Positions 5,226 to 62,442 of a stretch of DNA of 64,000 nucleotides are shown here, in pieces. The notes under the pieces were generated by a model. It was not told the origin of the DNA. It did no database searches and saw nothing but the letters and a program-made list of their open reading frames with translations. The position numbers and the translations under genes were made by a program. This DNA is from a virus. Position 1 is the first letter of the stretch. Every line of letters starts with the position of its first letter. Location: the IMG/VR virus record IMGVR_UViG_3300031576_001126, positions 64,001 to 128,000 of that record. One strand, given 5' to 3'.

Positions 5226-5229
5226 ATAC

Positions 5230-5973: not shown

Positions 5974-5974
5974 C

Positions 5975-8900
5975 ATGGCAAATAGACGCACTAGTAAATA
6001 TTTGCTTCAATATTTTGAAGATGGCGATGTATATTCGGCGAAAGCTGATATGCAACGTTTCCAAACAGTAGAGAATCAACTTGATTTGGCATTAAAATTA
6101 AGCGGGGGAGGCGTACTGAGTGGATGGGGATTGTTACAGACTTCAGATCAATCTGGAACCACGGCGATAACTATAAATCCCGGTTTTGGAATTGTTCCAT
6201 TTACCCTCACCAAAATAGATCAAATTACTGGTGTTGCAACAAAAGAACAACATTTTATTGGTGTTAGAACTAATGCCCCCATAATTATCCCAAATTTGGG
6301 ATTAAATAGAATAAGTGTAATTTATATCGAAATAAACAATCAACTTATACAAAATTTACAAAATAATCCAGAAGCTATTATCGATCTTTCCGAAGAAGCA
6401 ATATTAATAATTGTAAGACCCTCTATAAACTCTCCAGCAGGATCCGGACCCTATAGAACAACGACATCGACAAACGAAGCCGGTCTTGAAAAAGATATCT
6501 CAACAGGACAGTCGTTTGATGAATATCCTATTTATTTTAAAAAAATAGATGGATTAACATTTATTCCAGATAACAATAAAGCCGTAGTTTTTATAAATGA
6601 TAAAAAGCTTTTTAGGAGATATTTTACAACCGGGTCCCAGGGAAATGTTATAGGTTTTAACGATCCTCTTCATCAAGAAGATAATGTTATTGTTCGTGTC
6701 GATCCATTAAACAGCTTAGTTATTGGTGAAGTTCGCACAGACAATACTAAAGTAATAGATATAAACAATGAAGCAAAAGAATTTGCAAGAGAAAAATCGG
6801 CAGATTCTTTGGTTGGTCCCGCAACACAATCTCATGTTCATGATGGTCAAGAAGGCAATCCGTCTAAAATTCTATTGACTACAAAAACTGATTTTATATC
6901 TCCATCATCTACGTCGGAAGACAGAATTTTTACTTTTAACAAACCCGACGAATCTGTTTATGGACATAATTTTGCTAATGGAACTTATGAAACTTTTGTT
7001 TATATAAATGGATTTTTTAGTTTTAATAGCGCATCTGTTTTGGATAATGGGAGCACCATAACTGTCACATTTCAACAAAGCTTAGAGCCAATAGATGTTG
7101 TTCAGATTGTTTTAGTTTTGAACAATGATCAAACACAAATAAAAAGCACATTAAATCTTTCAGGAAACAATCCATCTGAAGAAAAAGTCGATATAAACAT
7201 ATCTGGAGATAGTATAAAATTAGATCAGATAGATCCTATTTTAATTCCTGCTATAAGTCATATCGGAAGACACAAAGAGGCAATGCGTCCCGGAAATGAT
7301 CCCTTTTCGTCCAGAGAATATGTCCATCGTTCTGAAAATTTCGATTATCAAGAATTTTATCCAGTTCACAAGAATAAATTTAACGCAAGAAATGCAAAGC
7401 ATATCTTTTTTGATGAAAAAAATTCATCTTTAAAATTAATACATGCTTGTGCTTCTAATGATTTTTTGTATATGGAAACAGACAAATTGATGTTTCAATT
7501 GCCTGAAAATTTTATTGGTGGATGGTCAAGTATAACTTTAAACAAAGATATAAATGAATATGATTCTCCATTTATTATAATCCCAGTAAAAAATCCAATA
7601 AATATCACATCTGATAATTGGGATAGATTGTTTTACGTCGGAAATAGATTTATAAATCAAAACGACTGGCAAGATTTGAACAATCCTGATTTGGACGAAA
7701 TAGTAAATCTTTCATTTGATTTAAATACCACGCCCAATACAGCTAACAGAACCAATATCAATGGCATCAGAATACAAGACGCATGTGGTGGGGAAAGTCC
7801 ACTTTTGATGGATAAAACCGCTTTTATGTTATTGGATAATAGAGTTTATGTTTATGATTATATTTCTAATTTGAGCAAATATTTCTGGCTTGATATAACC
7901 TCGACTCCTCTATGGAATGAGGCTGTAAGTTTGAGTTGCATTGAGGTTGAAGAAAATACAATTCTTTTTGTTGGCACTTCTGATGGGAAAATTTATTGCA
8001 ATATATTGGCAAGCTCTGAAATAAACAATAGAATAGATTCTGGAGCTAATTTTGTTCCTAATGGAAATATTGATTTTAAACCATTCAATATATGGGAAAA
8101 TAATTCTTATAGTTATGGATATGGGTATAGCCAAGCTATTGATTTTTTTGATGTGTTTGGGGTTAGAGGAAATGTTTTTGGATACGGAACATCGGGATAT
8201 GGTTTCGGGAATGAAGAAAAACTTCCAATAAAAGTCGACAATAATTTATTATTTGTAACAGCCAATGTTTCAGAAAAAAATACTGTTGCTACTGTATCAG
8301 ACACCAGCCTATCTCTTGTTAATAATTTATTAAATACTTTTGTTGGGAAAACAAGCGGACTTCCAAACAGCTTTGTTTTATTAGATTGGTTTGAAATAGC
8401 AAATGGACTATCGGGAGAGATTAGAAAAGTAATATTTTCAAACGACAGGCTTGTTGTCACGTCCGATAGCGATGTTTATTATAGTGATGAGGTTGGAGAT
8501 AAAACAAATTTATATTTTAAAGAAGACTATACATGGACGAATGCCTTTGCTCCATCAGATACACACAATGATATTAATTCAACAAGTAATGACATTTTAA
8601 TATTGGCATCAGATAATAGCATTTACCGTGGTGTTTGGAATGGTTTGTTTTATTCATGGTCAGTTTCTGAGAATACAATATATGGAATATCTATAAATAA
8701 TATATTACATCCGTCTTCAACCATTATTGTTGATGAGAATGATATTTATTCTTGTGGGAAATATGGAATTTTCAAAAGTGTTGACGAAGGATTATCTTGG
8801 AGATCAACAACTCAAATAATCGGTCTTCCTGAAGATAGAAATTCTGTTTTTACCACAGAAAAGATAGAACTTAGAGTTTTAGATACCGATCCATCCCTTG

Positions 8901-11900
8901 GGCGAATTATTGTTTCAAAATCGGAATTTCCATATGGCTATGGATACGGCTACGGTTATGGAGAAGGATTGGATTTCTTCGATGTATTTGGTATCGAATC
9001 GACAACATATGGTTATGGTGTTGGAGATTTTGAATCAACCTATTCCAATCAATATGGCTATGGATATGGTTTGGAGATATCGGATATACTTGGTTTTATA
9101 AATGATAACGATTGGATATTCTTTGGAGATAATTCCGGTAGTATATATAGGAATATACCACTAAGAGTTCTTGGACATGGTGTTGATGTATCTGGGCTTT
9201 TTTATCTTGATGTCGAATTGGCTGACGCATCAAAGGCCGATTTTTCAGAAATAATTGAAAATCAAATATTTTCCATATTTAGAAAAAAAGAACCATTAGC
9301 TATAATAAATGGAATACCTCAAGACAGAAGATATGATTCCACTGATATCGAAGAATATGAGGCCGATTATTTTAGACAATCTGTTGTTTTTGATAACGAA
9401 ATAAATCCAGATGATGAGATAACTATAGCGTCCGAATACAAAGCCTATGAGCCTATATTTAAATCAATAATAGGATTGTCTATAGACGATATTCGAGTAA
9501 ATGGATTAACTGTTGCAGTTTTGCCAAGAGATATTGATGCTGATAATTTTATTGTGATTTCGGATTCAGCAAACATAGATGACATAGTAAGAATAACAAT
9601 AAAAAACCTATACATAACAGATGTTGGAAGTTTTTCTCATGAAGAAATAGAAGACAAATTGTCTATTGAAGAACTTGGATTGCCATATAAACTTGAGGGA
9701 ATAAGAACATCTAATCTTCTTATTTCTATTATGGCTATGCAACATATGTTCCCGAATACAACGGATTTGGATTCCGATACAGAAATCAATGGAACTGCAA
9801 CTTCTACCGCAAGAGATTATATCGATGATTCATCGAAAACTTTTGCTCCTGGTTCGCTCATTGGCAGAAGAATAATCTTGGATTCAGAAGATAAAGAGTT
9901 TGACTATACGATAGAAAACAACACAGCAAGTAGAATTTGGATTCTCAGAAAAAGAACATATGATAATTTTTCTGAAAATGCTAACGGCACAGAATCTTCA
10001 TTCTTACTTAGAACGCCAGCCATATTAAATGATTTCAGAGCCTATCTTGACGGGGAAGAACAGGCGTTGACTGCCGATTACACGTTAGAAAGCACACTAG
10101 AAGGCATTACGACAATTGTTTTTACAATGCCCCCTGTTACTGGATCTCATGTTATTGTTGCCTATGTAGCTGTTGAAGACGATTTAGATTTCAGAGATTT
10201 TATAAATGTTGGTGAATTGTATGAAATTCTTCCAATAAAAACCTCTCCTTTTTCAGACTTAATAAACACTTTTGTGACAATGTATGAAGATGAAAGTTCT
10301 ATTGACGTTGAATTTAGCTTTATAGAAAACATTATATTAATTTCAAACGATGATATTGGAAAGAAAACAGACCTGACAAGTTATATTTATTTTAATCCAG
10401 TGGATGAATTCATTTATGCGGGAACCAACAAGGGGATATGGAAAAGAGAAAAAGATGTTTCTGTTTTTTGTAAAACAAGCGAACTTCTTCCAACAATAGA
10501 TGCCACTGGTTCTTTTAATCCACCGGATACTTTAAATGGATTATATGTCCAATATAACAAAACGACAAACGAATGGACGTTGACATGGGGATTGGGAACA
10601 AATCAAAGGGACATAAACGATAATCTCGATGATATAAATATAACTGCCATAGCTCATAATCCCGCTGATACAGATATGATTTTGGCAGGATCCCAGGATT
10701 GTTTATATAGAACGATTGATGGCGGATTGAACTGGAATATTGTTTGGGATTTTAGAACGGACGACAGAATAAAAGAATTCCCTGTGCCAAGGCAAATTGT
10801 TTTCGATGATAAAAATCCCTGGATTGTCAATGTCGTAAATCAATCTGGATTGTTTAGAAGTTTTGATTATGGCAATAATTTTGAAACAATATCCACATAT
10901 GACATTGCAACAAGGAAGCTTGATGCCTCTAGATCTTTTTCTTATCAGGTCGATGACTCAGACATTCGTGGTCTGTATTATTATGGCGAGAATAAGTTAA
11001 AGATAAAAAACTATAAATCAATAAGTTCTTTTGGGGCCGATAATTCTACGGTTATCGAGACGGGAGACAAAAATATACTGGGAATAAGTTTAGCGGATTT
11101 GGTTATAAGGAAGATAGAAAATAATACAAGTAATGTTAATGAGGTTTTCTTGGCTTCTGAGGGATATGGGGTTTTGAAGTCCACTGTAATGGGCAACGAT
11201 CCTCAAGTTTCAAGATATGATTTTAAAAAACAATATTTTAATTTCACAGATGAATTAATAGATCAATTTAACAATCCCAATAATTTAAATTTTATAAATA
11301 ATACTGGGGCGTGGCATTTTCTTCCGGACCCCGATAGACCGGGAGAAACAGTTGGAAGATATGTCATTTTTATAGATAATATTCGTGGAAGAACCTATAT
11401 CTTAACAAAAATAGAAAATGGCAGAAGAGTTCCTACTCATGGGGAATTTATAGGAAAATTCATAACTCTCGAAGCCAATACTGGATTTTATACTTTTAAA
11501 GTAATTGGTCACTATAACAGAGGTTTGTTGCCAAGTAGAACTAATGCAATTTATCCAAATGGCAAAGAAATTTCAAGTCAAATTGTGGAATTTGTTTTAG
11601 ACGGAAGATATCCGTTCCTTTACAATTCTAATTTATTGCCCCTCATAGAGGATCCTCCCGGAAGTGGAAACTTTAGAAGAAAAAGAGAGGGCGATTTTAA
11701 ATATTATTGGTACGGACTTGATGCTCCGTTTAGTACTCATCCAGCTTTATTTCCTGTTATTGTTCAATTTGGATCTCAAGTCCCATTATTTGCCCCAAGC
11801 AATGGGTCGATTAATAGGGCGCTTGTTTCTAATGGAAATTTGTTTGAAAAAAATTTCTCAGGGTTGATAACTTTTGCAAGCTATAGAAGATCTGAAACAT

Positions 11901-14900
11901 TAAGCCCAACTAGTTCTTCTGGAAATATATCATACACATTTATAAAACCATCTGTGGATTTGTTTGAATATTCATATTTATTCGTTAATGGAACTTACAG
12001 GGCCGAAGTTGTTGTTAATGGAAAGTCTACTTCAAACCCGAATACAATAACCGACACTGGCTCGACTATAATAGTCGATTTTGATGTGGCATTGTCTTCC
12101 GGAGATACGGTGGGCTTGGTATTGTTTGTTATAAATGCTAATACTCAAAATGAAGAGATAATGATTGAAATACATTATCCAACATTTGGAGGTTTTGGTG
12201 ATGCCCCTCCATCTTATTTCCTTGTAGTTGATGGGTTAAAGGATTTCTACTTTGGAGATATCCAGGCCGAAGAAAAATATAAAATAATATCATCAAGAAT
12301 AAAAACGCTAACACCAGAAGAAATCCCACTTTTTTATGCAAAAATTTATTTAAAATTGGATCCAGAAAGTTTTCGAGATGACGATCTTGATGATTTGGTC
12401 AGGCTTTGGAATATTGACGCCCAAAATACCCCGCCAACTCCAAGCGGAAGAATATCTCATGCAGCAATATTTCATAGCATGATTATTTCGTCATTTGTTT
12501 CCAACGCCATAACATTCAACCAGGGCAATCTGCCAACGATATTGTCTGATGGATATGATTTAAGAGGATATGTTTTATATCCAAGACTTGATTCTTCCGC
12601 ATTTTTCAAGATTTTATCGAATACGGAAGATACAATTGTTTTAGATTCTAATAATATATTGGAAATAGCGAGAATAGGAGATCAATCAAGAGTTGGTATG
12701 GATATCCAATCTGGAAGAGTTTTGGATATAACCATAGATCGTAATAATCCTAAAATTATATATGCTTCAGCAAAAGACAATCCCTATATATCGCTTGACA
12801 GTGGAAGAACATGGAGACTAATCAATGATGGACTTCCTATAAATTCTTCAATAAATGAAAGTTTTGTAAAGTTTGAAAAAATAAAAATACATAATTCATA
12901 TTTATATGGTTGTGCTTTAAACTTTGCCGAAAACTTAGGTGGAGGGATCTATAGATTCGATGGAAATTCATGGGAACAAATTGGCGGTATTGATGGCGAT
13001 GATTTGATTCCAAAATCCGTTAATGACTTTGCTATTTTCGATGATTTAGGAGACACTATAATTTATGCAGGAACATTACAAGATGGAATTTATAAGGGAA
13101 ATGACACTCTTGGAAGTTTCGTTTGGGAAAAACAAAAATTACCAGACCACATCATAAATTCCATGGATCTTGTTAAAAAAGATAATGGAGATCTTGAAAG
13201 AGTTTGGATTGGAACAGCGGGTAAAGGTTTATTTAGAAAAGACGGACTCAGTGATAAAACTTGGGAAATAGAATATGACAACATATTGAAAAATTCAGAA
13301 ATAAAATCCGTACTTTGGAGACCATGGAACATCTTTGAAAAAAATAGCGATATTTTTGTTGATTCTTTGTTTTCAACAATAACCACAATAAACACAGGAT
13401 TCAATTTAATAGAGACTAAAAAATATGTCCAAGTCAATTATGGCCCCGCAGAAAGTCTTGGATTGGAAAACGATCCAGATTTATTTGATTGGGAAAAAAT
13501 AGGAGAAAAAAAAGACGACAAAGAAATTCCTCATGTATTCTCTATAGATCAATCTAATGCTTCCCACATAACAGAATCAATAGACAGAACCATCACTGAT
13601 CACGATCTGCCGGACAATAGAAGACTAACTGCATTTGTTTCGGGAATAAAAGGATCTGGCGCTTTATCAGAAAATTTTGGAAACGGAGCATTATTGGCGG
13701 GAATAGGAGTTCCTTCCAATTCTCTTGGAATTGAAAGAGTAAATATAGATTCCAACCAACCAACAATTTACGAAGAACCATTTAGTCATTTGCCAGACAG
13801 ACAATCTATAACCACAATAGAAGAATCGGATTCTGGAAGAATTTTTTTTGGAACAGATAGAAGCGGGGTATGGAGAACTAAATCTTCGAACGGAAGAAAA
13901 TATTTATTACCGTTTGTCGAAAATCCATCGGATTCTTTTGATCTTTCAAATTATGGATATGATTACATTGTCGGCAGGTTAGAGAGATTTTTAGCGACAT
14001 CAGTTTCTGATTTTCCAAATCAAAATACATTCAACAGAATAACAGGGATCGATCCAACTGGAGAAATAGGCTTCATAGACACATCGTCATTATTTGATGG
14101 AATTGGATATTCGGAAAGATTTTTTAGAGCCGAAAACATATATACATATACTGTAAAATCTTCAGAATCTCCTGATCTTTTTTCTGACATAACTTTACAT
14201 GGGTCTGATATTATTGGTGGATACTTTGTTCTATCAGAAATAACAAACGAAGCTCGTGGAGTTGTTGGGAGCAACAGGATTATTCTTGAGATAATTAATT
14301 TAAAATCCGAATCCGGGGATTATAAATTGTTTTTATCTGCCGGACAAAGACAGGCGATTTTGCCTCCACAAGTTATCTCGGATGCTATTTGGATCGCAAT
14401 AGATAAAGAAATTGAAAGTCCATCAGGAAATTATAATAAAATAGTTATTATGGATTTTGAAAAATATGAAGATATAAGTGGCAATCTTCCAAAAACAGAT
14501 ATTAAAAATTCTCTTGGTGTAAAAGAATCGGCGGTTTTCATAAGAGATATGAAAGTTATTGGATCTGAGGCTGTTATTGGATGTGGAATTGGAGGACTAT
14601 TTGTATCTAAAGATATAAATAATTTAAACACATCTGACATAGAATGGTTCAATATACTTGTTCCTTCTGAAATAAAAGACATTACTTCTATAGTTTGCAT
14701 TCCCAAAACACCGACTAGTGGTTATGGGTATGGATATGGCGAGGGACTGGACTATTTTGATGTGTTTGGGCTGGATGGCAGTTTATATGGATATGGGTTG
14801 GGTTTATTTGAATATGATTATTCATATGGATATGGGTATGGGGTCGGAATCGAATATGAAAGCTTGGATATTTATGTGGGAACTTGGGGAAATGGTGTTT

Positions 14901-17900
14901 GGGCACATAAAGGTGGACATTGGATTGGAGACATTTTTACCGGAGGAACATGGGAAGAAGTTGATGAATTAAATTTAAAACATAAAAATATATGGAAACT
15001 ATTCTTGTCTTCCAATGGTTTGCTATATGCGGGAACAGAACATGGTGGAATTTATGTTATTGATCCAAATGGAGGTTCGTGGATAAGGGAAATAGACAAT
15101 ATAACAAGATCTAAATTATTTATATGGAAAACCGAAGGATATTCTACTAAAAATGAATCTGTTTCTGTTTTCACAAACAAAGATAATATTCTTACATATT
15201 CCTTTGGCGGTGGAGTAATGAGAAGCCTAGACGAGGGAAATAGCTGGGAACAAGCCATCAATGGTCTTTCAAATATTTATGTTCAAGATTTAACAATTTG
15301 TCCAAATTCAACTTCTGATACGGCCTATGTGGCTACGGCCGGAGGAGGAGTTTACAAAACAACAAATGCATTCACTGGGAATTGTTCGTGGATAAAATTA
15401 CCAACAAATGGATTGCCAGAAAATCTAAATATAGACGAAATAGAAGTTGGTAATGATCCAAATATAGTTTATATAAAAACAAGAATAAATGATTTATCAT
15501 TCAAAAGTCTTCCGTTATCTATAAAAAATGTAGCTTCCGTTTCCGATCCTCCAATCTTTGAATTTGGAGATTGGACCGGATCTCTTAATACTTCTCTTTT
15601 CAATGGCACAAGATTCACGCCTCTTCAGCCATATACAAAGGGAGATAGGAAAGCAATAATATTTAGAAGCACGGATGGCGGAAATACTTGGGAATCAGTA
15701 TATGACAAAGATCCAAAATTTACGGATAGGGATTATAGATTTTCAAGTTCTGTCTTTGGATTGACATTAAGACCTGGACAAAATGATATTGTTCATTTCT
15801 TGTACAAATCGACTTTGACATCCAACAATCCCTCTGTCGGAAATATTGACTCATTTTTCTTTGTAACGATGAATGGAGACCAAATTATCTCAGAAACGAT
15901 ATTCCCATTGGATAGCTATCAAAACCTTAAAATATTAAATCAAAGAACAGACGCATACATATCTGTTAATCCAATGAATTTTGATGAAATATACATTTCT
16001 CTCCATGGAAATGTTGGTTCGACCTTTCAATTGCCTCCAATATACAAATCGACAGATGGTGGAAAAACGTGGTTTTATTCCAACGGACATTTTACATCAA
16101 GCGAAAGTTTTAATACAAAACTACAAATATCAAACAAAATCCCACCATCTGTTTCGGCTGTTGTGTCGGATGTGTCTTCAAGTATAAGTTTAATTGGCAA
16201 TACAGAAAATATAGATAAAAATACAGCTATTTTTGAGAATACAAAAATATTTTTTTCATCCAATTTTAATAGAATAATTACATCTAGTTTTACGCAAACA
16301 ACCACAGAAGATCCGTTTACAGATAGTTTGTTCTTTACATATCGAGACGAACCAGTTGTTGGCGAAATTAATTCTTATCCGAGATCATTTTATCTTACTG
16401 GAGCCACAATTCAGCCTAATATAAATCAGCCAACAATAATTGCGATTCAAAACGGTGGACATGGAGATTTTCTTCCAAAACTTACAAAGGGGGTGGGGAA
16501 CTCCAATAATCCACAATTTGTCACCGTGGTTCTTGATCAAACTTTTTCTGGAGCTATTCTTGATCCTATAAGCAACAAATGTAAAATAGGCAATTTGACA
16601 TCAATAAAAATTGACTATTCCTCTCTTCCCACCGAATCTATATTTAGAAAAGAAAACTCATTGATAGGTTTGGATATTAGTATCGGAGGGATTGCAACAA
16701 AAATAGCTATACATAGAGCTTTATATCCGGTAGTATCTTCGACAATTCCAAATAAAATAGAATTAATTGTTATTGGAGATTTTGGATCATCTATCGCCAT
16801 TGGAACCGTTATGTCCGTAACCTTAAAACAACCCATATATTCTAATTATGATAACGATTTAATGTTATCTGTGAATTCCGGTGTATCTTGGAAAAAAATA
16901 GGGAAAGAATCTTTTTCTTTGGCTTTGGACAATATAAAGGGGATAGCTAACAATACCGTATTGCCAACAACTGTTCCGTTAACGGTCAGGTCTACATACT
17001 TATTGCAAGATGAAGGAGAAAATAGCGTTGTCTACAGAGGAGACGCAAGAGACGAAAGATATGAGAATCAATCCATTGAAAGATTAATATGGACAAAAAT
17101 AGTCATAGATTCGACATTTAAGTCGAATAAAACCTTGTTTAATGGTCTGGCTTTTAGTGAATCTAGAAGCGCAATATATATATCCGAATCAAATAAAATT
17201 TCAAAAATATCAATATCTCCATCTATTTCTGTAACAACACTGTTTGATAACTTGAACATATCACATCCCCTGGTTGTTTCCGAGGCAAACAGTAACGATA
17301 TGTTATTTGTTGCCAATAGTTCAGTATATTCATCAAAAGATGGATTTGAAACTTTCCAAGTTTTTACATTGCCTCAAGCAATAACCCCGGCCTCAATAAA
17401 AAGAATTGTTTTGAGTAGAAATCCAGATATTCCAGATGAGGTTTTCCTTTGTGTCGATGCTGGACAGTCTTTTGAACAATCAACGTTTAATTCTTCAGGA
17501 GTTATTTCAGAGGGAACAACAAACATTATAAGATTTGCTTTATCTGTTGGACAAAAAAATCCTTTTGAAAACTTTATAAAAAGATATATTTCTTTCGAAG
17601 TTAATGGATCAAATTCTATATTCAATACGAGAATAGAGAGGATAACCTCGTCCGAAATATATACGCTCTCAACAATTGTTGGTTCTGTTATTTCTTTTTC
17701 TTATGATACAATAACCAACAAAACTTCACTAACCGGCAACGGTTCTCCACTGGATGCAGGCGCATATGCGGGGAACATTGTCACAATTCAAACAAGCTTA
17801 AATGTCGATGCTTTAACAATATTTACAAGCAGAGTAGAAGATGTGGAAAATATAACAGAATCAACTTTTGATATAATAGTCAACGGGGATTTAAGACAAA

Positions 17901-20900: not shown

Positions 20901-23900
20901 CAGAATATGTGGGATTTTATTTGCCATATGAAATCAATGAAGATTCAATATTCGCATCAGGTGTTTTCTCATTCTCTTCTGGCCTTAACAATAAAACAGA
21001 ATCGAACTTCTTGACAAAAAACAAAAATGCATGGTCTGTGAAATTTAACGAAGAAGATGGTTTCGCTTCATATTTACATTTTGGACAAAATAATTTTAAT
21101 GATAACAAGAAATTTAAATTTAATTCTACGGATAACATTAGTTATTTAATGAAGACAAGAGATGGCGGACAAATATGGTATTCCTCGATAAACAATGTCA
21201 CCGGAGAAAGCGAATTCCCGGTTGCCTCTGTCGGCGATTGGATTTTCAATAAATTAGATCAAGATAATATTATAATTTCAACAGTTAACGGTTTATATGA
21301 GTCTGGAGAATATAATTCTGGAATATTTGTTACGTTTGATGGAGGACATGGTTGGAGCAACGTTACTGATGTTCTTCCAAAGGTTCCGGCAAAATCCATA
21401 GAATTAATAGAAGATAAAGTTTATGCCGGTATGCTTGGGTACGGCGTTTTTAATACAAGCTTGGCTTCAATAAATTCTCTTGTTCCTGATTGGGAACAGT
21501 TTGAGTCAAGATACACAACTCTCAATGGAATTAATATAGGTCTATGGAATGTCACTTCTATAGAGGAGGACAGAATTAATCCCGAAAGATTATTGATTGG
21601 GACAACTAATCAAGGGGTTGTTCAATCTCTCAATTCTGGAGAAAGTTGGTCTTTCGATGATAATGGAATTCCTTCTGGAAATATAACCGTCATAAAAATG
21701 TTAGCCGTGAATCCCTTTGTCACTCTTGTTGGAATAAAAAACGATGGGCTTTACATAAAAAATAATGACATACAAAAATATGAAAAGAAAACAAATGGAC
21801 TTCCAACAAATTCAAATATAAGAGATATAAAAATAGACATAACATTCTCTGATATATATCTTGAATTTAATTATTCTAATTCTCTGAATGATTTTATATT
21901 AATAATAAGGGCTGATTTCTTGCCTCCTTCAAGGACTCCTGAAAACGGGGTATTATATCAAGTTGGAGGAGAAATAGAAAATGCTAACGTTGTATATTTT
22001 GGAAATGAAGATTTCTCTCTAAATAAATTTGTGGATAGGAACGGAAAGATAAGAGATGGTATTCCATATTATTATAGATTTTTTACATTGAATTTAGATG
22101 GGACATATACCGAAAGAGATATTATTCTTGGAAAATCAACCCTTGTGGAATCATTAAAAATAACAGACACTAGTAGCGCTCGTCTGGCCGATCCATTCCC
22201 AACGTCTGGGAATGGATTAAAACACAGAATCGTCAAACCATCCACATTAACAACACAATCCAAGCCAATGGAGATAGTTTCAAATACAGGAACAGAATTG
22301 TTCTTGAGAGCAGATCCTTTTGAAATATTAAATAGAGGGGGGGATGCTACTTTTGGAAACAGTATATTAAGGAATCAGCAATATCGCATAGATTCAACCC
22401 TTATCGTTATTCCAATAAAGATAAATCCCATTTATATTATAGCTGAAGATATTTCAAATGGAATTTCTAAAGTTTACTATTCTAACAACAACGGCGAATC
22501 CTGGTTTGAAAGAAATTCAGGAATAACATCTACGGACATTAGAACGTTAACTTTGGAAATATTAAATATCGAATCAAGACTTCTTTTAGAACAGGCTGCA
22601 ATATACATATCTACTGCCGATGGAGTTTTTAAAAGCGAAGACAATGGATTGAGTTGGAACGAAATAAGTTCTTCTTCCGGAACAAATATCCTTCCAAACT
22701 CCATTCCATATAGAAAAGTTGTAGTGGATCTTGAAGACTGCAATATAGTTTATGCTTTAAATGATAACGGAGAAACTTTTAGAAGCTTGAATGAGGGAGA
22801 TTCTTGGGAACTTATGAATTCTTTTGATGGAGAGTTTAATGTGGCGGATATTGTTTCTTTCTTTACAAACCATATATATGTTGGGACAAATGGAGATGGA
22901 ATAATAAGGTTAGAAAATTCAGTAAGAGATAGAATTGATCTAAACGTTATAGCTGATGGGAATATCTCGTTTTTCGATATAGATTTCATAGAAATAGGTG
23001 ATTTTGCATCGACAGATACAAACTCAATAACAGCAAGCACTCTTGTTAAAAATGATTCCATATCGAACAACAGAGAACAAATAAGATTTAAAACAAAAGA
23101 ATATGCAAACAATATTCAAATACTTATTAAAAATAATGATATTCCATTTAATGTTGAGGATGTATTCATCGGTGATCAGCTTGCTAATCCTCCTAGTAAT
23201 CCGTTTATCTTAAGAATCCCCGAAACAGAAGACGATCCTACAATAGTTAATCAAATTATATCTCTTTCTGATAATAATTTGTATGCCGCAACAAACAGGG
23301 GGGCCTTTTTTACGAGTGATTTTGGATTAAAATGGAATAAAATAAACAATCCGGAATTGCCAGATGAAATTCTGGATATCGCCGATATAAGAAATAATGA
23401 ATTGGCATTAGCGACAGCAAGCGGACTATGGACCAGCACTAACGATAGAAAAGATTTTGGAATAATAGAATCTTCAGGAAAAAGAATAAATACTATTTTT
23501 GAATCTTCAGATAGAATAGTGAGAAATTTGATTAGGGGAGGAGAAAATGGTCTTAGAATTACAATAGAAAATTCAAAAAGTATAATAGCCTTTTCTGGAA
23601 AAAACAGACAAATAAAATTAAGCTGGGGCGATATCTTTAACAGAGTGGACGGAGGATGGTCTGAAAACACTCAAATAATATTGGCTGATCCAATTTTCAG
23701 ACCAATAAAACCCGATGATAATTCTTTGACAAGTTTTGATGGATGGGATCATGCCCTTATTGTTAGGAAAGGACCGTTTACTACTTTTGAAAAAGCTTTG
23801 GCTGCTGGAATAAACAACAATATATTTGCTCCCCAAACACAAGTTGTTTATCCAACTAATACTTTGGTTAGCGTTTATAACACCCCAATATCAATTGCTC

Positions 23901-24838
23901 AATTTTTTGCATCTTCTAATTCTATAAAAGAAAGCCTAGAAGAAATAAGAGATGTTAATTTGAAAGGTAAAAATTTGGTTGGTGTTCCGTTCAGTCCTCA
24001 AAGATTTATGACTGATGGATCCATTATTGTGGGTGTTCTTCCCAATAGGAAGAGAAGTGTTGCCGGATATCCAGATGAGTTTGATTTCGGTCCAAGTCCA
24101 GAATATCCAATAATCGATTCGGTACAACCAATTACTCAAGACAGAACATTACCAAATAATATTGCCGATTTGGACGCAGGAGTCGTAGCTCCAATTATAA
24201 AAGACGATATGTTTTATCTTTATAGAATTTATCCTTATGTTCTTGTTCCAGAACCGTTTGCCATAACTCCTGATGAAGAATTTCCGAAACTTCCAAACTA
24301 TAGACCGTCAACGGGGGATCTCCCAGATTCGTATAGCTATAATCTTGATCCAGATGACTTTCAGGGAGGAATTTCTACGGTCTTTAGCGGAATTACAATA
24401 GATGGGAATAACTGGATAATTGGAACAGATAACGGAATTTTTTATTCGACACAAGCTGGTAGAGATCCGGTTCCAACCGATAGTCAAGGAATAGCTGGAT
24501 CTGGATTTAAAATTCCAGCTTTAATCCAAACTTCAACTAACATTGTTCTTGCGGCAATAGTTTCGAATCAGGCGGTTTATCTTGCCAAGAGTGTGGAAAT
24601 TCCTTTAGGCAAAAACTGGGAAATAATAACTCCAACTATAAATAAATTTTCTGCGGCAGATGTTAAACGTATTTTTAATATCACAGAGGATGCTAATGGA
24701 TTCATTTATGTCACTACTAACGCTGGCATCTTTAAAGGTGATGCTAATGGAGATAATTGGGTTCTTTCTGGCAGTGTTGGAGATTTGGAAGCATTAAGTG
24801 GGAATCGAGTAATTGGACAGGAATTTCTGGTTATATAA
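5975..24838 (+). CDS. 6287-aa giant putative tail fibre/adhesin with many Asp-box (BNR) beta-propellers, Reg_prop-like blades, FN3-like and small beta-sandwich repeats, and three Tyr-Gly modules
   Basis: Uninterrupted 18.9-kb ORF with more than 12 Asp-box-type motifs (KSVDEGLSW, RTIDGGLNW, ISLDSGRTW, RSTDGGNTW, KSTDGGKTW, KSEDNGLSW etc.). Reg_prop-like SNTIRSVIEDNRGNIWVAS at ~18600. The N-terminus (RFQTVENQL...GGGVLSGW) resembles phage fibre anchor segments; no signal peptide is evident. Confidence 0.7.
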   Translation: MANRRTSKYLLQYFEDGDVYSAKADMQRFQTVENQLDLALKLSGGGVLSGWGLLQTSDQSGTTAITINPGFGIVPFTLTKIDQITGVATKEQHFIGVRTNAPIIIPNLGLNRISVIYIEINNQLIQNLQNNPEAIIDLSEEAILIIVRPSINSPAGSGPYRTTTSTNEAGLEKDISTGQSFDEYPIYFKKIDGLTFIPDNNKAVVFINDKKLFRRYFTTGSQGNVIGFNDPLHQEDNVIVRVDPLNSLVIGEVRTDNTKVIDINNEAKEFAREKSADSLVGPATQSHVHDGQEGNPSKILLTTKTDFISPSSTSEDRIFTFNKPDESVYGHNFANGTYETFVYINGFFSFNSASVLDNGSTITVTFQQSLEPIDVVQIVLVLNNDQTQIKSTLNLSGNNPSEEKVDINISGDSIKLDQIDPILIPAISHIGRHKEAMRPGNDPFSSREYVHRSENFDYQEFYPVHKNKFNARNAKHIFFDEKNSSLKLIHACASNDFLYMETDKLMFQLPENFIGGWSSITLNKDINEYDSPFIIIPVKNPINITSDNWDRLFYVGNRFINQNDWQDLNNPDLDEIVNLSFDLNTTPNTANRTNINGIRIQDACGGESPLLMDKTAFMLLDNRVYVYDYISNLSKYFWLDITSTPLWNEAVSLSCIEVEENTILFVGTSDGKIYCNILASSEINNRIDSGANFVPNGNIDFKPFNIWENNSYSYGYGYSQAIDFFDVFGVRGNVFGYGTSGYGFGNEEKLPIKVDNNLLFVTANVSEKNTVATVSDTSLSLVNNLLNTFVGKTSGLPNSFVLLDWFEIANGLSGEIRKVIFSNDRLVVTSDSDVYYSDEVGDKTNLYFKEDYTWTNAFAPSDTHNDINSTSNDILILASDNSIYRGVWNGLFYSWSVSENTIYGISINNILHPSSTIIVDENDIYSCGKYGIFKSVDEGLSWRSTTQIIGLPEDRNSVFTTEKIELRVLDTDPSLGRIIVSKSEFPYGYGYGYGYGEGLDFFDVFGIESTTYGYGVGDFESTYSNQYGYGYGLEISDILGFINDNDWIFFGDNSGSIYRNIPLRVLGHGVDVSGLFYLDVELADASKADFSEIIENQIFSIFRKKEPLAIINGIPQDRRYDSTDIEEYEADYFRQSVVFDNEINPDDEITIASEYKAYEPIFKSIIGLSIDDIRVNGLTVAVLPRDIDADNFIVISDSANIDDIVRITIKNLYITDVGSFSHEEIEDKLSIEELGLPYKLEGIRTSNLLISIMAMQHMFPNTTDLDSDTEINGTATSTARDYIDDSSKTFAPGSLIGRRIILDSEDKEFDYTIENNTASRIWILRKRTYDNFSENANGTESSFLLRTPAILNDFRAYLDGEEQALTADYTLESTLEGITTIVFTMPPVTGSHVIVAYVAVEDDLDFRDFINVGELYEILPIKTSPFSDLINTFVTMYEDESSIDVEFSFIENIILISNDDIGKKTDLTSYIYFNPVDEFIYAGTNKGIWKREKDVSVFCKTSELLPTIDATGSFNPPDTLNGLYVQYNKTTNEWTLTWGLGTNQRDINDNLDDINITAIAHNPADTDMILAGSQDCLYRTIDGGLNWNIVWDFRTDDRIKEFPVPRQIVFDDKNPWIVNVVNQSGLFRSFDYGNNFETISTYDIATRKLDASRSFSYQVDDSDIRGLYYYGENKLKIKNYKSISSFGADNSTVIETGDKNILGISLADLVIRKIENNTSNVNEVFLASEGYGVLKSTVMGNDPQVSRYDFKKQYFNFTDELIDQFNNPNNLNFINNTGAWHFLPDPDRPGETVGRYVIFIDNIRGRTYILTKIENGRRVPTHGEFIGKFITLEANTGFYTFKVIGHYNRGLLPSRTNAIYPNGKEISSQIVEFVLDGRYPFLYNSNLLPLIEDPPGSGNFRRKREGDFKYYWYGLDAPFSTHPALFPVIVQFGSQVPLFAPSNGSINRALVSNGNLFEKNFSGLITFASYRRSETLSPTSSSGNISYTFIKPSVDLFEYSYLFVNGTYRAEVVVNGKSTSNPNTITDTGSTIIVDFDVALSSGDTVGLVLFVINANTQNEEIMIEIHYPTFGGFGDAPPSYFLVVDGLKDFYFGDIQAEEKYKIISSRIKTLTPEEIPLFYAKIYLKLDPESFRDDDLDDLVRLWNIDAQNTPPTPSGRISHAAIFHSMIISSFVSNAITFNQGNLPTILSDGYDLRGYVLYPRLDSSAFFKILSNTEDTIVLDSNNILEIARIGDQSRVGMDIQSGRVLDITIDRNNPKIIYASAKDNPYISLDSGRTWRLINDGLPINSSINESFVKFEKIKIHNSYLYGCALNFAENLGGGIYRFDGNSWEQIGGIDGDDLIPKSVNDFAIFDDLGDTIIYAGTLQDGIYKGNDTLGSFVWEKQKLPDHIINSMDLVKKDNGDLERVWIGTAGKGLFRKDGLSDKTWEIEYDNILKNSEIKSVLWRPWNIFEKNSDIFVDSLFSTITTINTGFNLIETKKYVQVNYGPAESLGLENDPDLFDWEKIGEKKDDKEIPHVFSIDQSNASHITESIDRTITDHDLPDNRRLTAFVSGIKGSGALSENFGNGALLAGIGVPSNSLGIERVNIDSNQPTIYEEPFSHLPDRQSITTIEESDSGRIFFGTDRSGVWRTKSSNGRKYLLPFVENPSDSFDLSNYGYDYIVGRLERFLATSVSDFPNQNTFNRITGIDPTGEIGFIDTSSLFDGIGYSERFFRAENIYTYTVKSSESPDLFSDITLHGSDIIGGYFVLSEITNEARGVVGSNRIILEIINLKSESGDYKLFLSAGQRQAILPPQVISDAIWIAIDKEIESPSGNYNKIVIMDFEKYEDISGNLPKTDIKNSLGVKESAVFIRDMKVIGSEAVIGCGIGGLFVSKDINNLNTSDIEWFNILVPSEIKDITSIVCIPKTPTSGYGYGYGEGLDYFDVFGLDGSLYGYGLGLFEYDYSYGYGYGVGIEYESLDIYVGTWGNGVWAHKGGHWIGDIFTGGTWEEVDELNLKHKNIWKLFLSSNGLLYAGTEHGGIYVIDPNGGSWIREIDNITRSKLFIWKTEGYSTKNESVSVFTNKDNILTYSFGGGVMRSLDEGNSWEQAINGLSNIYVQDLTICPNSTSDTAYVATAGGGVYKTTNAFTGNCSWIKLPTNGLPENLNIDEIEVGNDPNIVYIKTRINDLSFKSLPLSIKNVASVSDPPIFEFGDWTGSLNTSLFNGTRFTPLQPYTKGDRKAIIFRSTDGGNTWESVYDKDPKFTDRDYRFSSSVFGLTLRPGQNDIVHFLYKSTLTSNNPSVGNIDSFFFVTMNGDQIISETIFPLDSYQNLKILNQRTDAYISVNPMNFDEIYISLHGNVGSTFQLPPIYKSTDGGKTWFYSNGHFTSSESFNTKLQISNKIPPSVSAVVSDVSSSISLIGNTENIDKNTAIFENTKIFFSSNFNRIITSSFTQTTTEDPFTDSLFFTYRDEPVVGEINSYPRSFYLTGATIQPNINQPTIIAIQNGGHGDFLPKLTKGVGNSNNPQFVTVVLDQTFSGAILDPISNKCKIGNLTSIKIDYSSLPTESIFRKENSLIGLDISIGGIATKIAIHRALYPVVSSTIPNKIELIVIGDFGSSIAIGTVMSVTLKQPIYSNYDNDLMLSVNSGVSWKKIGKESFSLALDNIKGIANNTVLPTTVPLTVRSTYLLQDEGENSVVYRGDARDERYENQSIERLIWTKIVIDSTFKSNKTLFNGLAFSESRSAIYISESNKISKISISPSISVTTLFDNLNISHPLVVSEANSNDMLFVANSSVYSSKDGFETFQVFTLPQAITPASIKRIVLSRNPDIPDEVFLCVDAGQSFEQSTFNSSGVISEGTTNIIRFALSVGQKNPFENFIKRYISFEVNGSNSIFNTRIERITSSEIYTLSTIVGSVISFSYDTITNKTSLTGNGSPLDAGAYAGNIVTIQTSLNVDALTIFTSRVEDVENITESTFDIIVNGDLRQTFEDNDIDFNTKFPSLRIGKLGDFLTVDYSGKITASRSTNQTLQNGLWYSNTFGEGFVKIDGLEIGGIDDRPGCLDAYLFDNGRVSAILNNDDTIRILTNNNRLPSGNINKVFTTPDGNIFALTSNGLCVIEGDEELEFSSFFYNNFTNIMDLGADQRYIFDAENKTFILSGIPNEFYGDETPTLASFNFNNVVATLKDSKETIWVGTEGFGLYAVFGNNIYNFNADNSNIGSNTIRSVIEDNRGNIWVASGNGGVSTSFYGDNINEIPAIVWTNFPTGIGFTENTGLTGAVNSINVRNTMSIIADGTVDVPQVNIDWTNISSVFPKSIILRSNSTITPSVVNGTDITFVPIRDIVLTIEEETNNGNLVWRITGSTAIDYGTNNLIGKHIVPDTRSNTNGFEIIFNSFNSFDIQRVEDENPPSIGNFMIVEKIDSAFVVYAGDGTDIGFNFSDVDLPNNNQYTYFLFFYNDVNFIYKLTDRKTVELSDSEIDSQNELDMICGGSGGLFKFTPSEDTQFTFIASFGEGNDITNIFFDTSNIGWLAATSKLVEFNSPNIITEFGINDLFSGKTDSIPSSMIVRNAAERSNGDIVIATDVGLSIRDIAEFTSIIENDPDISFRDDSGNLTLNDWRPSTLLSAGSDQFSFIDVGENNALLAVRKNIFSTSSGGNNWSITNNNDDNVIFDTIKFAHKIEKDNEIIDILFFTDRSIYSSGSDNIDILETENLPSRSGILESYSIGDMWLSEGPSSSRLIIGMYNNNIVEEERELAIIDFSSPDEFTTPVTFISGKDGLSIQSAYSFAEINDGLDIIICSGCKDSIIFKKNSDSWKPFITGEIEPETFVYTSLSARVDEESIEHGKTLYATRTPIYGVDFAPQVLSFRIDAPLVDNKVFKYDVNGSLAGRVRDGFRIYPSPIIKVDRPAIGEYNPQWFQKNIYRGHIGAVKFIESSRSLVLGGFANTLMVIPFTAERSDDFRKLACGVYSGLRGHRNFIPNQAAYSSTEYVGFYLPYEINEDSIFASGVFSFSSGLNNKTESNFLTKNKNAWSVKFNEEDGFASYLHFGQNNFNDNKKFKFNSTDNISYLMKTRDGGQIWYSSINNVTGESEFPVASVGDWIFNKLDQDNIIISTVNGLYESGEYNSGIFVTFDGGHGWSNVTDVLPKVPAKSIELIEDKVYAGMLGYGVFNTSLASINSLVPDWEQFESRYTTLNGINIGLWNVTSIEEDRINPERLLIGTTNQGVVQSLNSGESWSFDDNGIPSGNITVIKMLAVNPFVTLVGIKNDGLYIKNNDIQKYEKKTNGLPTNSNIRDIKIDITFSDIYLEFNYSNSLNDFILIIRADFLPPSRTPENGVLYQVGGEIENANVVYFGNEDFSLNKFVDRNGKIRDGIPYYYRFFTLNLDGTYTERDIILGKSTLVESLKITDTSSARLADPFPTSGNGLKHRIVKPSTLTTQSKPMEIVSNTGTELFLRADPFEILNRGGDATFGNSILRNQQYRIDSTLIVIPIKINPIYIIAEDISNGISKVYYSNNNGESWFERNSGITSTDIRTLTLEILNIESRLLLEQAAIYISTADGVFKSEDNGLSWNEISSSSGTNILPNSIPYRKVVVDLEDCNIVYALNDNGETFRSLNEGDSWELMNSFDGEFNVADIVSFFTNHIYVGTNGDGIIRLENSVRDRIDLNVIADGNISFFDIDFIEIGDFASTDTNSITASTLVKNDSISNNREQIRFKTKEYANNIQILIKNNDIPFNVEDVFIGDQLANPPSNPFILRIPETEDDPTIVNQIISLSDNNLYAATNRGAFFTSDFGLKWNKINNPELPDEILDIADIRNNELALATASGLWTSTNDRKDFGIIESSGKRINTIFESSDRIVRNLIRGGENGLRITIENSKSIIAFSGKNRQIKLSWGDIFNRVDGGWSENTQIILADPIFRPIKPDDNSLTSFDGWDHALIVRKGPFTTFEKALAAGINNNIFAPQTQVVYPTNTLVSVYNTPISIAQFFASSNSIKESLEEIRDVNLKGKNLVGVPFSPQRFMTDGSIIVGVLPNRKRSVAGYPDEFDFGPSPEYPIIDSVQPITQDRTLPNNIADLDAGVVAPIIKDDMFYLYRIYPYVLVPEPFAITPDEEFPKLPNYRPSTGDLPDSYSYNLDPDDFQGGISTVFSGITIDGNNWIIGTDNGIFYSTQAGRDPVPTDSQGIAGSGFKIPALIQTSTNIVLAAIVSNQAVYLAKSVEIPLGKNWEIITPTINKFSAADVKRIFNITEDANGFIYVTTNAGIFKGDANGDNWVLSGSVGDLEALSGNRVIGQEFLVI
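8108..8209 (+). repeat. Tyr-Gly module copy 1 (protein-level repeat)
   Basis: Encodes YSYGYGYSQAIDFFDVFGVRGNVFGYGTSGYGFG. Confidence 0.85.
8933..9070 (+). repeat. Tyr-Gly module copy 2
   Basis: Encodes YGYGYGYGYGEGLDFFDVFGIESTTYGYGVGDFESTYSNQYGYGYG. Confidence 0.9.
14720..14842 (+). repeat. Tyr-Gly module copy 3
   Basis: Encodes GYGYGYGEGLDYFDVFGLDGSLYGYGLGLFEYDYSYGYGYG. Confidence 0.9.
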
Positions 24839-25074
24839 TGGAGAAAAACATGAACGATGAAGAAAGGCTGAAGTTGGTCAACTACTTTGGAATAGATTAT
24901 GATGATTTTTTTAAAGAGTGTTATCAAGTTAATATTTATCAGGATATGCCGGATATTCCCATGGATGAGTATTTAGAAAAAATAAAAGAAGAAGACGAAC
25001 GTCTGCTTGATTTTTTAAAAGATATTGTGGATCTTGATAAAGATGTCAATATATTTAAAGATATAGGACTATAA
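24838..25074 (+). CDS. Small acidic hypothetical protein (78 aa)
   Basis: ATG at 24838 overlaps the TAA of the giant gene (TAATG). The product is D/E-rich (MEKNMNDEERL...) and fills the gap to the next gene. Confidence 0.6.
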   Translation: MEKNMNDEERLKLVNYFGIDYDDFFKECYQVNIYQDMPDIPMDEYLEKIKEEDERLLDFLKDIVDLDKDVNIFKDIGL

Positions 25075-25077
25075 AGA

Positions 25078-28000
25078 ATGTCTGTAACCGTAAATAATAT
25101 CGGTTTATATTTATCTAGCAGGGTTGGCAACAGAACTGATTATAAGCTAGTTTTGTCTGTCTATGTTGCAGATCATGCCAATGGAGGTGTTCCCGATGGA
25201 AATTTGCCGCTAATTACTATCGAAAGAACTGTTGACGATATAGATTACTCAGGGTGGTTTGTTTTCAATTTTCCATATCCTGTTGTTTTAATTCCAGACT
25301 ATTATTGTATAACGCTTTATCAAAAACCCGACAATGTTGATTTCCCTGTGGACTTTAGCGTAAATTTCGTTCAGTGGTTTTATACTTCTTGTGAAGATCA
25401 CTCTAACAAGGGCGTGAGTTCTTTCTCTTCTGATCTTCAATTCACTTCGGATGTCTATGGATATGGATACGGGGGAGGCGGCTATGGGAGCACGTATGCC
25501 ACTTCGCCAATTTATGGATATGGATATGGATATGGCGATCCGGCGGATGCTTTAGATTTTTTTAATATATTTGAAGCTGGCGAAAATGATTATGGTTATG
25601 CGATAGGTCAACCGTCTTTTTTTTATAGTTATGGTTATGGTTTTGAATATGTCGATTTTGTTACAGATGATGTTATACAGAGAAATTTTAAAGTTTATGA
25701 AGATTTCAATCATATCGAATTTGAAGGTGAAAATAATGCCTGCATAAACATACCTGCGGCAGAAGAAATAACGCTAATCTTAAATAATAGACAAGAATTT
25801 TTAATGGCAGAACAAGATGGAACGGCCATTGTTAATGATTTTATAACTCTCGATGGCTTTGGAGAAAGATTAATTTCAACAAATGTTTCTCCGTTAACAT
25901 CGGATTGCATTTCCAACAAAAATGTGGATTGGTTTCCGGCAAATTTCGCTTTATCAAGCAATGATTTGAATTATGTAGATACAGTGAATTCGCTGGGAAA
26001 TACAAATCCATTTAATGTTAATATGGCATCTTCGCCATATTATGGTGGGATATATATAAGTGTTGATGGAGGCTCTTCATGGGATGCTAAAAATGATGGA
26101 CTAACACTAGTCGACAATAGCATTAGAAATATAAGTTGTGTAAAGTTTGGACCAGATGGATCTTTTATTTTAGCTTTTGATAATACAAGTTTATCAGAAA
26201 GAGGAAAGGTTTTTAAAAGCATTAATCTCGGAGAATCTTGGACGGAATTAATTTTGGCAAGTGCGACATTATCTGGAATAATTGTTAATGATGGATTTGT
26301 AATTAGTTCTTCTGAGATATGGATAGGAACCGACAATGGGGTTTACAGATCTCTTGATGCAGGAACCACATGGTTCCCTGAAAACAATGGTTTACCATCA
26401 TTAACTAATGTTAATCAAATTCTTGTAGATTTAGATATTCTCGGAAACTATGGATATGGTTATGGTGGAGGAGAAGGAATAAGTTATTTTGATGTTTTTG
26501 GATCAGATGGTTCTTTATTCGGTTACGGATTCGGATCTTTTGAAATGAGTTTTTCAGAGAATTTTGGTTATGAATATGGATATGAGTATGGTTTTTCCGG
26601 AGGATCTTCGAGGATAGTTGCCATAGCTACGGAATTCGGAGCTTATTGGCTTGTTAACGGTGTTTGGGAAAGAATATATCCAGATATTGGCCAACCAGAA
26701 GAAAATACTAATACAATTCTATTTAGTAACAATAATATATTTATAGGCAAAGACGATGGATTAATAAGATCAGAAATAGTTGGACCTGACGAAGAATTCG
26801 ACAGAATTCGCTTCAGAGGGCATAAAACTTCAGAAGCGATAAATGGAGATTTTTATGTAATCGGTTTGTCTAGAAGAAAAACAACAAAAGTTAGATTGAA
26901 TAGAAATAAAGAATCTGAAATTTTTGTGGCACAACACGGAGGAGTGTTCTTTTCTGAAAATGATGGTGGAAACTTTGTAAATCTAACAAAAAGTATATCG
27001 GAAAGATCATTAAAAATAAAAGATATAATAACCAATCCAATAGATAGCGAAATTATATATGCATCCGTAGAAACCACAAAATTTGCAAATGCTGGGGTTA
27101 CAATCTTGGTGGATTGCTCTGGAAGCATGGTAGCAAACGATCCTGAAGAAAAGCGCATAGATATGGCCCTAAACATTGTTGATAACATTGTTTCTGTGGC
27201 GGTCAATACTCCATATTTCCAAATAATAAGATTCGGAGTTTCAGAAAATATTTTATTAAGAAATCAATCAATTTACAATTCATTAAGGACTCAAGGTGAA
27301 GATTTCGATATAATTGGAGCCTTTAATTTAACAAAAAATATAAAAGGAAGAATAGTTGATGCTGGATATTCAAGCAATGTGACTTTAGTAAGAAAGGCAC
27401 TAGATGTTTCTTGTCGAGAGCCTTCTAGTGCAAGAGAACATGCGAGAACGTTGTTCTTTGATGCCCTAACGGCAACATCTACTGGTTTGGCTAATTTTGG
27501 ATCAAGATGGGAATACAAAGAGAATGTATCTAAGTATATTTTCGATGATATTTCTTCTAATTTTTATAACAACTTAGATAAATCTTTGATAATAATAACT
27601 GATGGAAACGATACTGTTGACGGGAAAACTCTACAACAATTAATAGATAGCTCATCAAATTATAACAATATTCCGTCAAAGACATACATCGTTGGGGTTG
27701 GGCATAATATAAACTTTGAAAATTTAAAAGCGCTTAGAGAGAGCAATAAAAATTCAAAACTTTATCTGGCTCCATTCGATGAAAACATATATTCAACATT
27801 ATCAGATGATGTTTCTGATGTAATTCTTGATCGTGAAAAATTCAGGAACAGATCTGGAATTTGGAGAAAATTAATAGATCTCGAAGAACCAAAAATAACA
27901 AAAAATGTAATTTTAAAGGCCAATGTTCCGTCTTCAACAACACTAACCTATAGACTAAGAACTACAAACAATAAAAAAGACTTCACGGATTTCACTGTAG

Positions 28001-36658: not shown

Positions 36659-36660
36659 AA

Positions 36661-38666: not shown

Positions 38667-38667
38667 A

Positions 38668-39288: not shown

Positions 39289-39300
39289 TTGGAGAATTAA

Positions 39301-39951: not shown

Positions 39952-39957
39952 TTCATA

Positions 39958-43253: not shown

Positions 43254-43263
43254 GAGAATAAAA

Positions 43264-44801: not shown

Positions 44802-44806
44802 TTTGA

Positions 44807-61220: not shown

Positions 61221-61237
61221 GTTGTGAGGAACTTGTT

Positions 61238-62418: not shown

Positions 62419-62442
62419 AATAATAAAAAACTAGGAATTCTA

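Follow-up and report, generated by a model that had tools for sequence, protein, structure and literature searches.

On the structural proteins of phages, immunoglobulin-like (Ig-like) domains and accessory domains of the carbohydrate-binding module (CBM) type are small, dispensable and exposed additions, which are gained and lost and are thought to contribute weak adhesion. The glucan-binding YG repeats (CW_binding_1, PF01473) are beta-hairpin units of about 20 residues, strung in long tandem arrays that provide aromatic surface adhesion, and the fungal CBM1 (a disulfide-stabilised type A CBM of about 36 residues) presents a planar aromatic face made of a few exposed Tyr or Trp residues. The T-even adhesin gp38 combines glycine-rich motifs, polyglycine-II helices and hypervariable loops at the fibre tip, with aromatics at the contact surface; prion-like [G/S]Y[G/S] low-complexity regions are disordered, vary in length and have no fixed residues beyond Tyr and Gly. 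Here, we report on a tyrosine-glycine (YG) module that recurs in giant tail-region proteins of an uncultured jumbo phage, within a stretch of 64,000 nucleotides (bases 64,001-128,000 of the 140,188-bp IMG/VR virus contig IMGVR_UViG_3300031576_001126; hereafter the window). The module represents a hitherto undescribed family of domains, of a general kind already known; it is predicted to fold on its own within the hairpins of other domains, and it may act as an accessory adhesion patch.

Two giant open reading frames (ORFs) of the window carry the module: one encodes a 6287-aa protein (P0001; 5975-24838, + strand; ORF list and translation) and the other a 2440-aa protein (P0002; 25078-32400, + strand; ORF, translation and Pfam). 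An earlier note, made from the letters alone, had placed five copies in these ORFs, and a six-frame regular-expression scan with the strict pattern [EQDAGS][GA][LI][DS][FY]F[DN][VI]F[GE]-x5-[YF]GY bore this out by returning exactly five matches in the window, all on the + strand. The cores start at nucleotides 8144, 8975 and 14753 in the 6287-aa ORF and at 25558 and 26485 in the 2440-aa ORF, with YG runs that begin at 8114, 8933, 14723, 25513 and 26449. Chance would be expected to produce none, as the strict pattern occurred 0 times in 2000 composition-preserving shuffles of both proteins, in which a (YG)3 run was met 0.0005 times per shuffle (vs. 7 observed). The five places given in the note were recovered, but its start at 25456 belongs to an extra YG run (25456-25491, + strand) that lies 19 codons 5' of the true start of module 1 of the 2440-aa protein (25513), varies between orthologues and falls outside the profile match. 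By hidden Markov model (HMM) domain matches, the modules of the 6287-aa protein, all on the + strand, span 8093-8239 (site D, residues 707-755, a short form without the F-E block; E 1e-14), 8921-9106 (site C, residues 983-1044; E 2e-22) and 14702-14878 (site A, residues 2910-2968, in a propeller-like blade hairpin; E 5e-20). Those of the 2440-aa protein, on the same strand, span 25495-25677 (module 1, residues 140-200; E 1e-15) and 26431-26622 (module 2, residues 452-515, directly after an Asp-box (SxDxGxTW) blade; E 1e-20).

At identical residues, third-codon positions agree in only 30-70% of cases between copies, which indicates that conservation acts at the protein level, as had been proposed. 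A microsatellite or other DNA-level repeat was ruled out by these freely differing synonymous positions and by Tandem Repeats Finder, which retrieved tiny arrays only (e.g., TATGGA x3.8 at 25513). Over the whole contig, a single-copy search followed by a regular-expression pass brought the count to nine copies in five proteins (three in the 6287-aa, two each in the 2440-aa and 4146-aa, and one each in the 1373-aa and 443-aa proteins). The earlier count of five was thus too low, four of the nine copies being upstream of the window (in the 1373-, 4146- and 443-aa ORFs).

Among 1.84 billion representative proteins, a profile built from the nine copies matched only 73 clusters at E <= 1e-3, of which 21 reached E <= 1e-10; the matched members that were looked up are all unnamed metagenomic proteins (ENA, JGI, Logan), one of them labelled 'hypothetical protein'. 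Rescanning the 73 clusters yielded about 105 module instances with a common skeleton, YGYGYG(Y)G-x-G-L-D-[YF]-F-[DN]-[VI]-[FLI]-g-x2-G-x3-G-Y-G-x3-F-E-x6-Y-G-Y-G-[YFW]-G-[YFW]-E. Three parts can be distinguished in it: a YG strand; the segment G-L-D-[YF]-F-[DN]-[VI]-[FLI]; and a G-x3-G-Y-G turn-strand that is followed by F-E and by a second YG strand ending in G-[YFW]-E. Over approximately 100 instances G6, G8, G27, G46 and E48 are invariant, Y5 and F16 are conserved in 97% and 95%, respectively, and D14 and D/N17 are conserved as well. The aromatic positions separate into a Tyr-specific class (positions 3, 5, 7, 28, 41 and 43, with 85-97% Tyr and 3-8% Phe) and a Phe/aliphatic class (positions 16, 18, 19 and 33), while none of the 52 profile positions holds a conserved Cys. 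The modules are acidic (43 Asp+Glu vs. 5 Lys+Arg in 295 residues) and tolerate insertions in two loops, namely after the first YG strand and at x5. Thus, the x5 spacing that the earlier note had found fixed does hold for all five window copies; in the 1373-aa family, that loop takes up 10-25 extra residues.

The searches for a described counterpart were negative. The nine copies had no family match in Pfam at E <= 10 (beyond three stray single-copy matches, to DUF7840, Keratin_2_head and DUF5320), the module-bearing proteins had no match in PHROGs, and the ESM Atlas offered no usable neighbour (best score 0.76). Considered together with the fold searches of the PDB and BFVD given below, these results agree with the initial impression that the module is not a named domain; likewise, the HMM built from the copies matched no known domain, and the homologues that it recovered keep the skeleton instead of showing random YG expansion. 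Several small metagenomic proteins hold one module in unrelated contexts (P0037, 284 aa; P0068 and P0072, 186-195 aa; P0028 and P0031, 163 aa), so the module is not restricted to giant proteins.

We modelled the copy at window positions 14672-14908 (site A with its flanks) with AlphaFold2 from a 29-row alignment, and obtained a mean predicted local distance difference test (pLDDT) score of 80, with 87-96 in the core. The first YG run, F-D-V, Y-G-Y-G and the last YG run are modelled as strands and F-E as a short helix, while the flanking host strands pair with each other. When the 443-aa protein was modelled in full, the module was again predicted better than the rest (pLDDT 70-80). At the level of prediction, the module is shown to be an all-beta domain of about 50-60 residues that is autonomous and inserted in exposed beta-hairpins of its host domains, which are propeller-like blades in both the 6287-aa and the 2440-aa protein and an Ig-like domain in the 443-aa one. 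The view of it as a loose linear 'tag', put forward before, was not sustained, since the invariant residues beyond Tyr and Gly and the confident predicted fold point to an insertion domain. The module-only model resembled no fold in the PDB (Foldseek best E 4.5; VIA-align, 0 of 48,161 chains at Z >= 2) or in BFVD (best E 6.6), so no function can be borrowed from known structures; for so small a domain, missing matches to a predicted model are weak evidence of novelty and do not prove a new fold. A complex prediction for two module copies gave no verdict (score 0.00, without controls) and weighs neither for nor against binding.

The module proved to be portable, as anticipated, since colinear orthologues of the 6287-aa protein (found in metagenomes, with 30-57% identity) and of the 2440-aa protein cleanly have or lack it at several sites (four in the former and one in the latter). 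At site A, it lies between two blade strands in P0001 and P0003, and is replaced by a tight turn in P0012, P0005, P0019 and P0052. At site D, it is found only in P0001 and P0003, with a short loop in four other orthologues, and a further site of this family is filled in P0012 and P0019 and empty in P0001 and P0052; P0005 has a module at yet another site. Site C is occupied in all 7 aligned orthologues, and in the 2440-aa family module 1 is present in 14 of 14 and module 2 in 13 of 14 (it is cleanly absent from P0066). At variable positions, each copy is closest to the same-site copy in another genome. The exception is the young, lineage-specific site A copy, whose likeness is to other copies within its genome and lineage. 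This pattern suggests old vertical descent with occasional within-genome copying. The five window modules start and end with YG-coding repeats of the type (TATGGN)n (e.g., 8933-8956 and 9053-9070), and such direct repeats on both sides of the core could supply microhomology for gain and loss.

A particular case of nesting was seen in the 443-aa protein (contig 61222-62553), in whose model the intimin D00-D0 Ig domain aligns to residues 208-383 (Z 10.6, rmsd (root-mean-square deviation) 2.5, 84 residues, 27% identity) and skips about 75 residues of the module. The Big_1 profile matches 11 of the 12 members of this family, starting right after the module (best E 1e-8; the contig's own copy, with 27.3 bits, stays under the curated cut-off of 34.9). 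Together, the two alignments place the module inside the first hairpin of an Ig-like domain. The N-terminal part of the protein resembles CBM4/16/22 jelly rolls (Z 8-9). Most members of the family (L009, which is the contig's copy, and P0048, P0060, P0061, P0062, P0069 and P0071) have a further short YG run at the C-terminus, in the last ~35 residues and after a conserved S-Y-x-[FY]-Q (model pLDDT ~30), and it could represent a strand that docks onto a module.

Compared with the systems outlined above, the module stands closest, as a working analogy, to the accessory Ig-like and CBM-type domains of phages, with which it shares gain and loss between related phages, although it is a member of none of the groups compared. 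It differs from them in its sequence family and in its placement, since such accessory domains are usually appended in series, whereas the module is nested in hairpins, even within an Ig-like domain. The module-only model had no Foldseek match below E 4.5 and no PDB chain at Z >= 2, which does not prove that its fold is other than Ig-like. The CW_binding_1 repeats resemble it in having short hairpins with conserved Tyr-Gly and other aromatics; however, hmmscan of the nine copies against Pfam-A (E <= 10) gave no match to PF01473, and neither did the whole giant proteins. Unlike the repeats in those tandem arrays, the modules stand alone, separated by hundreds to thousands of residues, and each is a tripartite unit of 50-60 residues that has a D-[YF]-F-[DN]-V-F core and an invariant Glu and is nested in another domain. 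Type A CBMs offer a working analogy for the presumed tyrosine ladder on a very small domain, although the module, an acidic one without a conserved Cys, bears no relation to CBM1 in sequence, and none in fold was detected. Prion-like regions and synthetic GYGYGYG peptides (PMC8163036) have in common with it alternating Tyr-Gly strands that are able to form Tyr ladders; unlike prion-like regions, including low-complexity aromatic-rich kinked segments (LARKS), the module has a fixed length, invariant D/F/G/E positions and a confidently predicted core with defined strands. In contrast to gp38, the module is predicted to form beta-strands, is not hypervariable, and occupies many internal sites.

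We tentatively favour, at somewhat less than even odds, the reading that the module is an accessory, multivalent adhesion patch whose copy number can be tuned. In a YG strand all tyrosines point to one side and all glycines to the other. Phe16, Val18, Phe19 and Phe33 would thus form a small core on the glycine face of the YG strands, and the Tyr-specific positions would make up a solvent-exposed tyrosine ladder beside an acidic cluster (Asp14, Asp/Asn17 and Glu48), which may hold a cation. A bound cation is plausible given that, in so acidic a module, no conserved basic residue is available to pair with these three positions. The change from Tyr to Phe takes a single mutation, one that is favoured in an AT-rich genome; considering that six positions nevertheless hold on to Tyr, selection appears to act on the hydroxyl group, as is expected of solvent-exposed or hydrogen-bonding tyrosines. 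The patch may contribute weak binding to a polymer of the host surface or the environment, a glycan being the most plausible one, with avidity tuned through the gain and loss of copies, in the manner proposed for the Ig-like and CBM-type accessory domains on other phage appendages. The carriers have adhesion-type domains (BNR/GH74-like propellers, VWA, CBM-like jelly rolls and an intimin-type Ig) and a tail tube gene lies upstream of them; as copy number and position also vary, an accessory sticky patch fits better than one fixed contact. Several observations speak against this interpretation. The exposure of the tyrosine face is deduced from conservation, and the searches of Pfam and the PDB revealed no sequence or fold link to known carbohydrate-binding modules. 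Moreover, the modules were judged not more conserved than their flanks (identity 0.39-0.49 vs. 0.32-0.42) and their positions other than Tyr and Gly drift (0.24-0.31), which leaves room for a purely structural role.

A rival reading is that of a neutral or stabilising loop filler, a compact, self-folding cassette spread by recombination between its YG-coding ends and kept because it is harmless, which we consider improbable. The unexceptional conservation relative to the flanks would be expected of it, as would gain and loss at many sites with the host domains undisturbed; the identical YG-coding repeats at both ends are a possible recombination substrate, and the likeness of the lineage-specific site A copy to its genome-mates also fits. 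A harmless filler fits poorly, however, with the retention of site C and of module 1 of the 2440-aa protein in orthologues that are only 30% identical, with the invariance of Glu48 and four glycines, and with the strict preference for Tyr at the six positions where Phe is rare, which argues for a selected hydroxyl. We also regard as unlikely, if less so than the filler, a velcro-like or docking role, in which modules bind each other or one phage partner (a decoration protein, a chaperone or a baseplate socket) and thereby tie the giant proteins together. The module is shared by five proteins of one gene block, the C-terminal YG run of the 443-aa family could add a strand to a module, and synthetic GYGYGYG peptides self-assemble to amyloid-like fibrils (PMC8163036). 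Yet copy number and position shift between orthologues, which would be unusual for a fixed assembly contact, and the module has a confidently predicted monomeric fold; besides, copies are closest to same-site copies elsewhere and not to their genome-mates, so there is no sign of co-evolution with one partner.

Directly behind the last module-bearing gene of the window lies the first glycosyltransferase of a glycosylation island (GT4-type, 32439-33692, + strand; PHROG and Pfam matches), and homologous glycosyltransferases of this type directly follow module-bearing giant genes in three related metagenome loci (L018, L019 and L020). The co-occurrence with such islands that the earlier note had asked about is therefore seen in 4 of the 4 loci examined, the glycosyltransferase regions being 32439-45691 in the window, 17389-21022 in L018, 8390-11669 in L019 and 13238-16763 in L020. 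L020, a groundwater contig, has a different gene order, in which the glycosyltransferase (the first one being a full-length homologue of that in the window) follows a 1366-aa protein and not the 2440-aa one. This adjacency, along with the six Tyr-specific positions and the tyrosine O-glycosylation known from bacterial S-layer proteins (PMC2943079), raises the possibility, to which we give little credence, that the module is a recognition tag or acceptor for the phage's soluble glycosylation island, whose glycosyltransferases would dock on it or glycosylate its tyrosines. The narrower version, in which the YG domain is a dedicated cassette that the soluble cytoplasmic glycosyltransferases of the island recognise, with O-glycosylation of its exposed tyrosines, seems very improbable to us. 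For the most part, the adjacency reflects synteny by inheritance (n = 4 loci that are not independent), and it fits Ser/Thr glycosylation of the giant proteins, in which Ser and Thr are abundant, equally well. For virion protein glycosylation of the Ser/Thr type, mycobacteriophage virions are a precedent. In addition, tyrosines packed in a small beta-sheet would be poor acceptors, and the 140-kb contig has no match to Wzy_C (O-oligosaccharyltransferase type) or to Glyco_transf_8 (glycogenin-type GT8). Nor were Tyrosinase and Cu-oxidase_3 matched in it, which weighs against a hardening of the appendages through dityrosine or quinone cross-links of the kind known from resilin or helminth eggshell proteins; all these absences are weak evidence, as the contig covers ~42% of the genome. 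Cross-linked structural proteins do have a Tyr/Gly-rich composition, which the module shares, and its Tyr-specific positions would suit such a role, but this chemistry needs neither a fixed length, nor invariant acidic residues, nor the predicted fold, and the modules are few for it, a protein of several thousand residues having only one to three, so that we find it scarcely credible.

The contig is 42% complete by CheckV, which implies a whole phage genome of roughly 300 kb or more. No relatives were found in two scans of IMG/VR or in the phage GenBank collection, and the public runs that hold the stretch comprise two DNA runs of one cave-metagenome sample, from which the contig itself may derive, with no RNA runs among them. 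Moraphages, a jumbo-phage lineage with core glycosyltransferases, are described in a paper without mention of tyrosine or giant proteins (PMC12619734). The tail tube gene (Phage_tube_2, contig 16447-17568) is followed by an unbroken + strand series of twelve very large ORFs (lengths of 1079 to 6287 aa, besides one of 443 aa) that extends to window position 32400, and then by the glycosyltransferase/methyltransferase/nucleotide-sugar island and by replication genes. The island also encodes a PseB/CapD-type dehydratase and an RmlD-like reductase. The 6287-aa protein has Pfam matches to Sortilin-Vps10/BNR propeller and Reg_prop, and its N-terminal 500 residues had no match in a PDB sequence search. 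In the 2440-aa protein, a BNR/GH74-like propeller, a VWA domain and a DUF3604/PHP-like domain were recognised, and its 14-orthologue profile matched VWA chains and a GH74 propeller of the PDB. The pairing of VWA (profile matches to ITIH1 and to the VWA of a mussel thread matrix protein) with the DUF3604/PHP-like domain was noted separately (residues ~675-850 and ~1770-1870). A GIY-YIG/NUMOD3 homing-endonuclease gene (5164-5973, + strand) sits between two giant genes, overlapping the 3' end of the upstream 2195-aa ORF and stopping two bases short of the start codon of the 6287-aa one. On the opposite strand, near a glycosyltransferase gene, a highly repetitive 1605-aa protein without assigned function (locus L012, contig 2442-7259, - strand) matches phrog_25468 in 12 stretches (E 3e-129).

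What is new here is the two-class analysis of the aromatic positions, the five sites of gain and loss, the nesting within an intimin-type Ig domain and the four-locus adjacency to glycosyltransferases. The finding is, for now, descriptive, and the family occurs only in a small group of uncultured phages. Should the neighbouring glycosyltransferase island act on the module, this would reveal a new viral protein-glycosylation system; if tyrosines were the acceptors, it would be the first such system for tyrosines encoded by a virus, and its acceptor domain would be portable. Were the tyrosine ladder to be confirmed, the module would provide a new minimal binding scaffold and a natural case of domain-in-loop grafting for protein engineering. 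A self-folding cassette of ~55 residues tolerates insertion in the hairpins of unrelated beta domains, with up to nine copies per genome. As the giant appendage proteins of huge phages are almost wholly unannotated, the module offers a handle on how they are built, how they diversify and what they target.

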